This document shows positions 55,138 to 56,455 of a stretch of DNA of 64,000 nt, piece by piece. The notes under the pieces were generated by a model. The model ran no database searches. It was given only the letters and a program-made list of their open reading frames with translations, and was not told the origin of the DNA. This DNA comes from an uncultured Bacillota bacterium. Lineage in GTDB: Bacteria > Bacillota_I > Bacilli_A > RF39 > UBA660. The stretch lies in assembly GCA_905212975.1 (NCBI GenBank), contig CAJMGO010000004.1, positions 4,044-68,043 of the forward strand, given 5' to 3'. The number at the start of each line of letters is the position of its first letter. Position 1 is the stretch's first letter. Made by a program: the position numbers and the translations under genes.

Positions 55138-55214
55138 GTCTCAGTAGCTCAGCTGGATAGAGCAACGCCCTTCTAAGGCGTGGGTCGGGGGTTCGAATCT
55201 CTCCTGGGACACCA
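55138..55214 (+). tRNA. tRNA-Arg (TCT)
   Basis: Acceptor GTCTCAG/CTGGGAC, D-loop AGCTCAGCTGGATAGAGC, anticodon loop CTTCTAA, T-loop GGTTCGAATC, encoded CCA. Confidence 0.85.
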
Positions 55215-55224
55215 TAATGAAAAT

Positions 55225-55250
55225 AACCGTTGAAATTCAACGGTTTTTTT
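55225..55250 (+). terminator. Terminator after tRNA-Arg
   Basis: CCGTTG-aaatt-CAACGG followed by T7. Confidence 0.65.
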
Positions 55251-55261
55251 GTTTATTGCTC

Positions 55262-55318
55262 TTGATTAGGATTCGAACAACACGACCATAAAGAAGTGCA
55301 ATTTCTATCCAGCTTCTA
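55262..55318 (-). other. Inverted partial copy (D-loop to T-arm) of tRNA-Arg(TCT): a pseudo-tRNA remnant
   Basis: The minus-strand read GCTGGATAGA..ACTTCTTT..GGTCG..GTTCGAATCC shares D-loop, anticodon-loop (TCT) and T-loop blocks with the tRNA-Arg 50 bp upstream. It lacks the acceptor stem and CCA. It overlaps the stop of the REase-like gene. Confidence 0.4.
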
Positions 55319-56069
55319 AATAGTGAATTTTATCAAATAATAGGGAAATGAAATTTTTTTTAATAGTAAATTCTAAACTTTTGTTACTATATGTTCCAAT
55401 CTTATCACCACTTTTAATAAGTCTAGCAACAATACTTATTTCTATAATTCCTCTTTCTAATAAATTTAAAAAAGTTTCAAATGATTTTAGTTTATATAAT
55501 TCTAGTGAATAATACCTATAATAAATAACATCATCAATAATTTTTTTACTAGCCCTTATTAAAGCTAGTTTATTTAATTTTAGGCATAAATGATCTTTTA
55601 ATTTGTCTAAGTAAACAAAGGATTCTCTTTCAATTAGTTCATTATTTTTATTGTAAACACATAATATTAATATTTCACTTTTTTTATCAATTTCAAATTT
55701 AAATTTAAAATTATTATTTACGCAACATGGATTCTTACAATTAAGTGTTGCAATAAAAATATTTTTATCACTTATATCTTTATCTGGATATCCATATTTT
55801 TCAATTATTCTATTAATTTCAGGAAATGTCGGGCCATCAAAAGCAGTATTAAATAAATGTAAAGGATATCGGCTAAATCGTGTCGAACATTTTATTTCTA
55901 TATCTTTGTAATCAGGAAAAAACATTGAATCAATTTTTTTATTAATTTCATTTTCAAATGTTAATCCAACATTACCATAACTTTTATATTTACTTTTTAT
56001 CCAACCTTTATTATTTATTTTACAAAATTCATTTATTAAACTTTTCATATTTTCATCCATAATAATCAC
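55305..56069 (-). CDS. Orphan PD-(D/E)xK nuclease, type II restriction-endonuclease-like (MvaI/BcnI-like?)
   Basis: 254 aa, no TM. Candidate active site FPDYKDIEIKCS (PD...D/E-x-K). No methyltransferase gene adjacent. Followed by a 370-bp ORF-less AT-rich tract. Confidence 0.35.
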   Translation of the reverse strand: MIIMDENMKSLINEFCKINNKGWIKSKYKSYGNVGLTFENEINKKIDSMFFPDYKDIEIKCSTRFSRYPLHLFNTAFDGPTFPEINRIIEKYGYPDKDISDKNIFIATLNCKNPCCVNNNFKFKFEIDKKSEILILCVYNKNNELIERESFVYLDKLKDHLCLKLNKLALIRASKKIIDDVIYYRYYSLELYKLKSFETFLNLLERGIIEISIVARLIKSGDKIGTYSNKSLEFTIKKNFISLLFDKIHYLEAG

Positions 56070-56429
56070 CTCAAATTAAATTTTAGAGTATTAACATAAC
56101 TAAATCAAATGACTGTTTTTGTTATTTCGAATATTTAATAAATATGAAATATATTTTTTTAACATTAATAAATTTGATTTTGAACTTTATAATTATAAAA
56201 AGTAATTTTTTTGTATATAATTAGTTTTTTTTATTTATTTGTGAATTATTATTATATTGGACATAAAATAATTAAAATTAGATATGTGTTAATTATGTTG
56301 CCTTTTATTGCTTTATAAAAATGTATTAATTATTATAAAATATTTTGATTTTGAATATTTATATTACAAAATATTATAATTAAGATTAGTTTAAAGAGCA
56401 TCCTTTCATTCTATGGCGGTCATAGGGCA

Positions 56430-56455
56430 CAAAAAAACTAGTCATAAGACTAGTG
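56430..56455 (-). terminator. Terminator of the minus-strand tRNA operon
   Basis: ACTAGTC-ataa-GACTAGT perfect hairpin followed (on the minus strand) by U7. Confidence 0.65.

Follow-up and report, generated by a model that had tools for sequence, protein, structure and literature searches.

The restriction endonucleases R.MvaI and R.BcnI are monomeric enzymes of Type IIP, and MutH, the methyl-directed mismatch-repair nickase, is a solitary housekeeping monomer of the same nuclease fold, which nicks one strand and serves as a precedent for domestication in the absence of an adjoining, dedicated methylase gene. A gene of this kind was analysed here in a stretch of 64,000 nucleotides (nt) of contig CAJMGO010000004.1, from an uncultured Bacillota bacterium (hereafter the window; 64 kb, to whose positions all coordinates refer, while L-numbers such as L001, L003 and L012 denote the related loci that were compared). 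The gene lies between a transfer RNA (tRNA) gene, tRNA-Arg(TCT), and an operon formed by tRNA-Leu(TAG) and a tRNA with the anticodon CAT, hereafter tRNA(CAT), and it is accompanied by partial, inverted copies of the tRNA-Arg and tRNA(CAT) genes. The account that we prefer, although its chances appear to us about even, joins a domesticated, solitary MvaI-fold nuclease to terminator-centred duplications of tRNA genes formed by template switching or fold-back copying, of which that of tRNA-Arg would be recent and that of tRNA(CAT) ancient and re-copied.

The inverted copies recall the duplications that arise by template switching at quasipalindromes, in which the arms are arranged around a central hairpin, grow alike and overwrite the neighbouring sequence (e.g., PMC7202029 and PMC8604942). 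In the present locus, by contrast, the long arms, which reach ~97 nt, consist of tRNA-gene copies, and the tRNA(CAT) case has been kept across many species, has no simple palindrome centre and is enriched beside the nuclease gene. A cargo gene that directly follows tRNA genes and has part of a tRNA repeated close by is also reminiscent of tRNA-targeted islands, although here the repeat is inverted instead of direct, an integrase is missing, the base composition matches that of the host, and the gene order is old and shared with relatives. One other comparison is provided by the homing endonucleases, given that the seg genes of phage T4 are free-standing homing endonuclease genes located beside conserved targets, and that some homing enzymes of the PD-(D/E)xK type exist. 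The likeness lies in a site-specific nuclease gene that stays persistently beside a highly conserved gene, although nothing in this locus points to mobility, a target site or co-conversion, and the fold family is not a classical homing family.

The nuclease belongs to the MvaI/BcnI family over its full length. It matches Pfam family PF15515 (MvaI/BcnI) with 110.1 bits against a cut-off of 25 (E=2e-31), covering profile positions 1-227 of 227, and R.MvaI itself with E=4e-22, and it is recognised in PADLOC by REase_II, a Type II endonuclease model. An AlphaFold2 (AF2) model built from 42 homologues reached a predicted local distance difference test (pLDDT) value of 91.4 and, in a Foldseek search, matched the MvaI-DNA complex 2oaa with a template modelling (TM) score of 0.87, BcnI (2odh/2odi) with 0.68 and MutH with 0.40, giving the two-lobe monomer fold seen in MvaI and BcnI. 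The catalytic residues of MvaI are Glu36, Asp50, Glu55 and Lys57 (PMC1874612), with which E36, D50, E55 and K57 of the window protein align, and all four are invariant in 42/42 homologues. The first-pass annotation had described a restriction-endonuclease-like PD-(D/E)xK gene, and this description holds, with the catalytic residues intact. Its length of 254 amino acids, however, applies only if translation begins from the GTG at 56069; as this GTG belongs to the ribosome-binding site GAGGTG (56072-56067), the ATG at 56060 is the likely start, which gives 251 amino acids, the length found in the closest database relative. By homology, the protein should be a monomeric, Mg2+-dependent enzyme that clamps a short DNA site between its catalytic and recognition lobes and cuts one strand at a time, and it would presumably be enzymatically active.

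On the other hand, the residues that contact the bases have been replaced. In MvaI, the CCWGG site is read by His223-Asp224-His225, Arg209 and Asp207 (PMC1874612), and the residues aligned with these are R/S225-N226-K227 in place of H223-D224-H225, V/I211 in place of R209 and S209 in place of D207. The new set is conserved within the subfamily, and a specificity other than CC[W/S]GG is expected. Given these differences, the target of the nuclease is probably a site other than CCWGG. In agreement with the first-pass annotation, no partner methyltransferase was found: neither methyltransferase motif IV ([DNS]PP[YFWH]) nor the C5 PCQ motif is present in any open reading frame (ORF) of the window or in the ORFs of 42 homologue loci totalling 283 kb, and the Pfam neighbour lists contain no methyltransferase, so the adjacent cognate methylase of a Type II restriction-modification (R-M) system is missing. 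A canonical plasmid homologue is located in a cluster of methyltransferase, helix-turn-helix and endonuclease genes, whereas the window nuclease has neither an adjacent methyltransferase nor an adjacent controller protein, and its gene is chromosomal and occupies a fixed place by the tRNA operon.

The sites of the classical enzymes are not avoided in the host either, given that CCWGG occurs 20 times in the window against 16 expected and CCSGG three times against 1.8 expected. When all 4- and 6-bp palindromes and 5-bp XXNXX sites were compared between 341 kb of DNA with the nuclease and 740 kb without it, no site was specifically depleted in the nuclease-bearing DNA, and GATC was low in both. 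The nuclease thus probably does not work as half of a classical R-M pair, and a role outside R-M, which had been offered as an alternative in the first-pass annotation, is among the readings that fit the evidence best. MutH is an example of such a role, although the structural match is distant, neither a function in mismatch repair nor a dependence on Dam is supported here, and MutH has no linkage to tRNA genes. Literature searches turned up no account of orphan MvaI/BcnI homologues with a linkage to tRNA genes.

The gene is an old chromosomal resident and has probably been inherited mostly vertically. Its composition is native and lacks the atypical values of a genomic island, with a GC content of 21.0% and a GC content at third codon positions of 9.5%, against 23.9 ± 3.2 and 10.6 ± 1.9, respectively, for 34 other genes of the window. 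The order cysS, tRNA(CAT), tRNA-Leu (plus Gln and Thr), nuclease, tRNA-Arg, gerM, gerE and spoIIIAH in L012 is that of the window, at identities of 61% for the nuclease, 67% for CysS and 53% for GerM. In some relatives, the tRNA genes Gln(CTG) and Thr(CGT), which the window lacks, stand between tRNA-Leu and the nuclease (L012:2579-2730; L005:5633-5781), and in loci of this type the inverted tRNA(CAT) fragment is placed after the last tRNA instead. Among the species-level genome loci with enough flanking sequence, 28 of 32 have the nuclease no more than 700 nt from the tRNA(CAT)-tRNA-Leu(TAG) pair, even where protein identity falls to 40%; in 22 of these the pair lies upstream in the same direction, in five it is divergent, and in one the nuclease is upstream of the pair. 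In the remaining four, the pair is 1.2 kb away or absent. The adjacency of cysS to the tRNAs and the other flank are mostly lost in those loci.

More than 230 homologues, at 40-92% identity, are found in gut and rumen metagenomes and metagenome-assembled genomes, the latter labelled as Bacilli, Firmicutes, 'Tenericutes', 'Mycoplasma' or Erysipelotrichaceae, and the protein cluster at 92% identity is carried by contigs of up to ~500 kb. An assembly index contained no entry with the exact sequence of the nuclease. Protein searches returned no relative in phage genomes or in the viral contigs of IMG/VR, and only distant homologues, at 25-30% identity, on plasmids. In a tRNA-centred sample of metagenome contigs, the nuclease is present at only 6/107 tRNA(CAT)-Leu pairs, and more distant relatives that keep the cysS-tRNA synteny lack it, which implies that the gene was gained (or lost) at this site at some point; no closely related loci were found that differ in the presence of the nuclease. 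In the nearest sister strain (L001-L004, ~86% DNA identity; e.g., L003:2179-2950) it is a fresh pseudogene, with the start ATG changed to ATA, a TAT codon changed to a TAG stop, and a +1 frameshift, while the ORF is still 92% identical, the flanks are intact and both inverted tRNA fragments have been kept. Given this, the gene is dispensable in at least one lineage.

These results do not favour the decayed, tRNA-targeted mobile insertion that had been suggested for this locus. In addition to the native composition, the order shared at 61% identity and the lack of viral relatives, there is no integrase or recombinase gene between the tRNAs, and the interval 54900-56800 contains no att-like direct repeat of a tRNA 3' part, only AT-rich chance matches, while both tRNA-derived copies are inverted and not direct. 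The first-pass annotation had also named a combination that would speak against its proposal, namely that related genomes have the identical arrangement, with a conserved, non-nuclease function for the ORF, and that the inverted fragment scores as random; the arrangement is indeed common to relatives, but the ORF still encodes a nuclease and the fragment does not score as random.

This last point concerns the tRNA-Arg copy, which starts ~44-56 nt past tRNA-Arg. The local alignment spans 55270-55314, where the minus strand has in common with tRNA-Arg, with the order kept, the D-loop block AGCTGGATAGA (11 nt), the anticodon-loop block CTTCT and the T-loop block GTTCGAATC (9 nt). When 2530 segments of 100 nt from both strands of the window were ranked, this was the top match to tRNA-Arg, with a score of 34 against 24.5 for the runner-up and a mean of 12.6 (standard deviation 2.2), and it is by this distance from the other segments of the window that the copy is well beyond chance. 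Neither 55270-55314 nor the tRNA(CAT) fragment at 56395-56426 is called a tRNA by ARAGORN or Rfam (E<=10), and both are remnants at the level of sequence only, with no detectable cloverleaf.

The copy is one arm of a larger symmetry. The tRNA with its 20-nt trailer (55138-55234) aligns with the reverse complement of 55236-55332 at 69/97 positions, with an alignment score of 43 against -18.7 ± 7.9 for shuffled sequences, which makes up a degenerate palindrome of ~195 bp centred on the terminator loop at 55235 and displays the two-arm symmetry that template switching would leave. At its centre, a perfect 21-nt palindrome, within an inverted repeat (I11; 55214-55234 and 55236-55256) that is 86% complementary, acts as a two-way terminator for tRNA-Arg on the plus strand and for the nuclease on the minus strand. 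The final ~8 codons of the nuclease ORF, with its TAG stop, come from the right arm, and the C-terminus of the protein leaves the family consensus (…LFxKIYSY…) exactly at the start of the arm. This is most simply read as an inverted duplication, with the tRNA-Arg terminator as its pivot, that replaced the earlier 3' end of a gene that was already resident. The arm has been retained in L003 (~86% DNA identity), where it is 83% conserved and has eroded differently, and it is missing in the more distant syntenic locus L012, which has only 75 nt between the ORF and tRNA-Arg. The inverted copy of ~55 nt reported earlier is thus real, with its D-, anticodon- and T-loop blocks, and it does overlap the nuclease stop codon, TAG 55305-55307 being located within the D-loop-like block; it is not acceptor-less, however, as the whole tRNA and its trailer are mirrored and the acceptor is simply more decayed. 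A recombination scar, one of the alternatives put forward for this piece, is among those that fit the evidence best.

The second copy derives from tRNA(CAT). Labelled tRNA-Met by ARAGORN, this tRNA is not an initiator, given its paired 1-72 end, and its sequence presumably places it close to the bacterial, lysidine-modified tRNA-Ile2. Its antisense strand matches the Rfam family of the plastid ycf2 5' UTR (Plastid-ycf2; untranslated region) with 41 bits, below the gathering threshold, and the ycf2 5' UTR family adjoins trnI-CAU in plastids; the gene probably encodes tRNA-Ile2. At 56395-56426, the plus strand reads AGAGCATCC…GGCGGTCATAGG, a sense-like copy of tRNA(CAT) positions ~22-54, which is therefore inverted relative to the gene and reads antisense on the strand of the operon and the nuclease. 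The fragment begins 10 nt past the terminator hairpin of the operon, 3 nt past the T-run, and no other segment of the window matches tRNA(CAT) as well (score 33, against 25 for the runner-up). It is 93% identical in L003, compared with 65%, with indels, for the middle of the adjoining AT-rich tract.

An equivalent fragment is found 0-25 nt past the terminator T-run in nearly all related loci, whichever side the nuclease is on. A significant inverted copy accompanies 26/30 tRNA(CAT) genes paired with tRNA-Leu, compared with 1/30 in the direct-copy controls, and none was found for tRNA-Leu (0/29) or for any tRNA-Cys, Gln or Thr gene. In the window itself, both tRNA units beside the nuclease carry inverted copies and the distant tRNA-Cys has none. 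These fragments follow their own genes: at variable positions, 231/276 match the tRNA(CAT) of the same locus, against 188.7 ± 5.3 when the tRNAs are permuted among loci, and 0/5000 permutations reached the observed value, so that the arms are kept alike by a test that ignores phylogeny. For example, the fragments track lineage-specific changes of the tRNA that include the anticodon-stem variants of L005, L035, L056, L147 and L153 and several T-stem variants. The mismatches, on the other hand, have the spectrum of plain GC-to-AT decay, with no excess of wobble-compatible changes, which favours repeated re-copying at the DNA level over selection for RNA pairing.

The relationship with the nuclease is less simple. 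In the tRNA-centred sample, after de-duplication, a downstream fragment is present at 5/5 operons with the nuclease and at 11/71 (15%) without it (Fisher p = 2.4e-4). Nuclease genes located away from the tRNA pair carry no fragment, and fragments also occur without the nuclease, beside unrelated downstream genes. In some lineages, a further inverted copy, of tRNA positions ~1-39, stands just upstream of tRNA(CAT), and an antisense copy of positions ~1-33 was observed upstream of the gene in L061, L073, L094, L102 and others, as well as in L016:1090-1125 and L027. In one clade without the nuclease, an antisense copy of positions ~12-33 lies downstream of the consensus promoter TTGACA-17-TATACT and, given this position, would be in the transcribed 5' leader, where a leader-tRNA hairpin of ~20 bp is predicted. 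In the window, an 11-nt inverted match to the anticodon loop and stem of tRNA(CAT) (GCCCGGTTATG on the operon strand) occurs at 56663-56673, in the 17-nt spacer of the predicted promoter of the tRNA operon (TTGCAT … TATTAT); it may be partly coincidental, as its TTATG portion belongs to the TGn extended -10 context common to related loci. No description of antisense tRNA-Ile2 elements was found in the literature.

The origin of these structures can be pictured as follows. Fold-back or template-switch copying would pivot on an intrinsic terminator hairpin, and at tRNA-Arg it would have written a mirror image of the tRNA and its trailer beyond the terminator, at the expense of the 3' end that the nuclease gene had before. 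A similar but much older event would have produced the mirror-image tRNA(CAT) piece that follows the tRNA(CAT)-Leu terminator, and occasional template switching between the arms may since then have re-copied the gene sequence into the fragment, which AT-biased mutation would erode in the intervals. Published work shows an increase in the likeness of the arms through template switching between inverted repeats (PMC8604942). A possible benefit would be that the terminator structure is lengthened and so protects the nuclease gene against read-through from the strong tRNA promoters. We infer both the mechanism of duplication and any such benefit. For the tRNA(CAT) fragment, other routes were worked through by hand, and neither a single insertion into an inverted tRNA gene, nor an integrase-type attL/attR event, nor one inversion between repeats led to the order and orientation seen here. 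Two convergent copies of tRNA(CAT) that share a terminator might, on the other hand, have undergone a 'flip-flop'.

A number of observations weigh against this combined account of a domesticated nuclease and template-switch duplications. The terminator pivot alone cannot yield the tRNA(CAT) fragment, because tRNA-Leu stands between the gene and the terminator, and the two-arm symmetry is only partial in this case for the same reason. With only 12-21 nt of perfect match at a stretch, there is little for homogenisation by recombination to act on, and a passive scar explains neither the enrichment of the fragment beside the nuclease nor its persistence in AT-biased genomes across dozens of species. 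An active, solitary endonuclease with a short site should need either a methylase or the avoidance of its site, neither of which was found in the DNA searched, and the pseudogene of the closest sister strain marks a role that is dispensable there. Finally, the adjacency of the nuclease to the tRNAs survives inversions and outlasts that of cysS to the tRNAs, for which a scar gives no reason.

Of the rival explanations, the one that survives best, although it still seems unlikely to us, is a functional RNA element, in which selected antisense tRNA copies would pair with the tRNA in read-through transcripts or, in some clades, in the 5' leader, either controlling the maturation of tRNA(CAT) or blocking and destroying read-through RNA and so shielding the nuclease gene. 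The predicted read-through RNA of tRNA-Arg folds into a long helix of -68 kcal/mol (z = -6.5), and that of the tRNA(CAT) operon reaches -93 kcal/mol (z = -4.5). The constant placement of the fragment past the T-run, its conservation relative to the adjoining spacer, the leader copy of the nuclease-less clade and the complementarity to its own tRNA, kept through at least seven lineage-specific changes, are also consistent with selection on RNA. Against this reading, however, count the lack of any preference for G:U-compatible mismatches and a fragment that lies beyond a good terminator and copies tRNA(CAT) rather than the nearer tRNA-Leu. In the divergent loci, moreover, the predicted tRNA promoter lies downstream of the copy by the nuclease, which would therefore not form part of the operon transcript, and the extents of the fragments differ widely among lineages. 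No Rfam family corresponds to the leader or trailer antisense elements, and a scan of six related loci at the gathering threshold returned only tRNAs and one T-box.

A cis-acting cassette of the homing-like or mating-type-like kind appears improbable to us. In this case, the nuclease would nick or cut at or near tRNA(CAT), and repair from the inverted copy or from the gene would create and homogenise the fragments and tie the nuclease gene to its target. Cis-acting nucleases are typically encoded next to their own sites, which matches the arrangement observed here, and the adjacency in 28/32 genomes has been kept despite inversion of the pair relative to the nuclease (five loci) and relocation (one locus), while the other flanks vary. 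The fragment found beside every nuclease-linked operon of the tRNA-centred sample and the inverted copies of both flanking tRNA units point in the same direction. Fragments that track the tRNA are also present in loci without the nuclease (e.g., L056 and L147), however, and are missing from nuclease genes away from the pair. In addition, tRNA(CAT) has the same sequence whether or not a genome carries the nuclease, and so shows no protective polymorphism; no close viral or plasmid relatives were found, and no recognition site can be inferred from the site-depletion comparison. The specific proposal that the nuclease and the inverted tRNA(CAT) copy form one cis-acting cassette at the DNA level, in which break repair keeps the gene and its mirror copy alike, would be a shade more doubtful still.

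Least probable of all, and in our view very unlikely, is the remnant of a tRNA-targeted integrative element or R-M island whose integrase, methylase and att repeats have decayed to leave an orphan endonuclease: the gene does lie just downstream of tRNA 3' ends, has family members elsewhere that are mobile R-M genes on plasmids, is found at few of the sampled pairs and not in syntenic relatives, and is decaying in the sister strain, but an inverted tRNA copy is not a product of site-specific integration, integrase and direct repeats are missing from a locus of native composition, purifying selection acts on the catalytic residues across more than 40 homologues at species level, and the arrangement is common to a locus at 61% protein identity, which implies that any insertion is ancient and that the gene is now domesticated.

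A solitary restriction-like nuclease would be expected to be lethal or useless without a methylase, and in dozens of uncultured gut Bacilli this one persists with intact catalytic residues, almost always beside the same two tRNA genes, whose operon carries a mirror copy of one tRNA that changes in step with the gene. If this linkage is functional, it may represent a use of the MvaI fold in housekeeping or defence that has not been described, a device for nuclease-driven gene conversion, or a hitherto unrecognised way of shielding a gene from strong tRNA promoters. A true cassette would be a bacterial module of nuclease-driven gene conversion acting on an essential, single-copy tRNA gene, which would explain the lasting linkage to the operon. 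If, on the other hand, the linkage is not functional, the locus would be a clean natural case of terminator-centred template-switch duplications that overwrite the end of a gene and are re-copied over a long period of evolution. In either case, it provides a caution against taking the combination of a tRNA, a partial tRNA and an orphan nuclease for a genomic island.

Table 1. Positions of the features of the nuclease-tRNA locus in the window.
Feature	Position	Strand	Basis
tRNA-Arg(TCT) gene, left palindrome arm	55138-55214	+	ARAGORN; Rfam tRNA 63 bits
Two-way intrinsic terminator hairpin, AACCGTTGAA-A-TTCAACGGTT	55225-55245	both strands	terminator scan
Right palindrome arm: decayed inverted copy of tRNA-Arg and trailer	55236-55332	-	arm alignment; match ranking in the window
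Solitary MvaI/BcnI-family PD-(D/E)xK endonuclease gene	55305-56060	-	Pfam; R.MvaI; AF2/Foldseek; PADLOC
Putative nuclease expression signals	56061-56114	-	promoter scan; conservation in L003
AT-rich spacer (~87% AT)	56115-56391	no strand	GC, ORF, fold, Rfam and L003 comparison
Inverted partial tRNA(CAT) copy	56395-56426	+	best match to tRNA(CAT) in the window; conserved in related loci
Intrinsic terminator of the tRNA(CAT)-tRNA-Leu operon	56437-56454	-	terminator scan; same position in all related loci
tRNA-Leu(TAG)	56466-56550	-	ARAGORN; Rfam
tRNA(CAT), labelled Met by ARAGORN	56557-56633	-	ARAGORN; Rfam

The only ORF between the tRNA genes is on the minus strand (55305-56069), where the order is tRNA(CAT), tRNA-Leu, the terminator at 56454-56437, a 370-nt AT-rich spacer, the nuclease and the two-way terminator at 55245-55225 (Table 1). 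The tRNA-Leu/tRNA-CAT operon had been described as convergent with the nuclease, but it is actually upstream of the gene on the same strand, and it is tRNA-Arg that is the convergent partner, given that tRNA-Arg and the nuclease run into the two-way terminator from opposite sides.

The AT-rich tract is a fast-evolving spacer. Its GC content of 13.3% (56070-56400) is in the lowest 0.1% of 330-bp windows, although three other regions of the 64 kb are equally AT-rich, so that the long, ORF-free tract of ~85-90% AT reported earlier is confirmed (87% AT, no ORF of more than 35 amino acids, and nothing credible in a listing of mini-ORFs), but it is not unique. Nor does the small RNA that had been suspected there find support: the tract has no credible Rfam match (weak, chance-level matches only at E<=10), its predicted RNA has no excess structure (z = +0.63), and the middle of the tract is 65% identical to L003, with 17 gap columns, against 92% for the ORF. 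Only the two ends are conserved, namely the tRNA(CAT) fragment and ~55 nt at the promoter and ribosome-binding-site end. The latter contains, upstream of the nuclease, the promoter-like sequence TTGATT-17-TAAAAT (56108-56080), recovered in a promoter scan, in addition to the GAGGTG, and is 89% identical to L003 compared with 65% for the adjoining spacer. The nuclease would thus appear, from these signals, to have its own promoter and ribosome-binding site.

The surroundings of the locus are ordinary housekeeping for a low-GC (24%), spore-forming member of the Bacillota, and the neighbouring genes are gerM, gerE, spoIIIAH, cysS and a DUF192 gene. Through Pfam labels taken from the syntenic locus L001, the interval 53258-55091 contains spoIIIAH, a gerE-like regulator and gerM, and 58650-63236 contains a Flp/Tad pilus cluster. 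Two minor observations were made on the wider sequence. GATC is strongly under-represented in the window and 1.08 Mb of related loci, with observed/expected ratios of 0.45 in nuclease-bearing and 0.57 in nuclease-less DNA, and in the window itself 75 sites were counted where ~120 are expected; this depletion is clade-wide and unrelated to the nuclease. Finally, a trailer motif with the palindrome GTTCGAAC (e.g., AATCTGTTCGAACTTTTAT) stands between the tRNA 3' end and the terminator at several sites, following tRNA-Leu in L064, L079 and L154, which are unrelated loci without the nuclease, and tRNA-Cys in the window (20402-20440).

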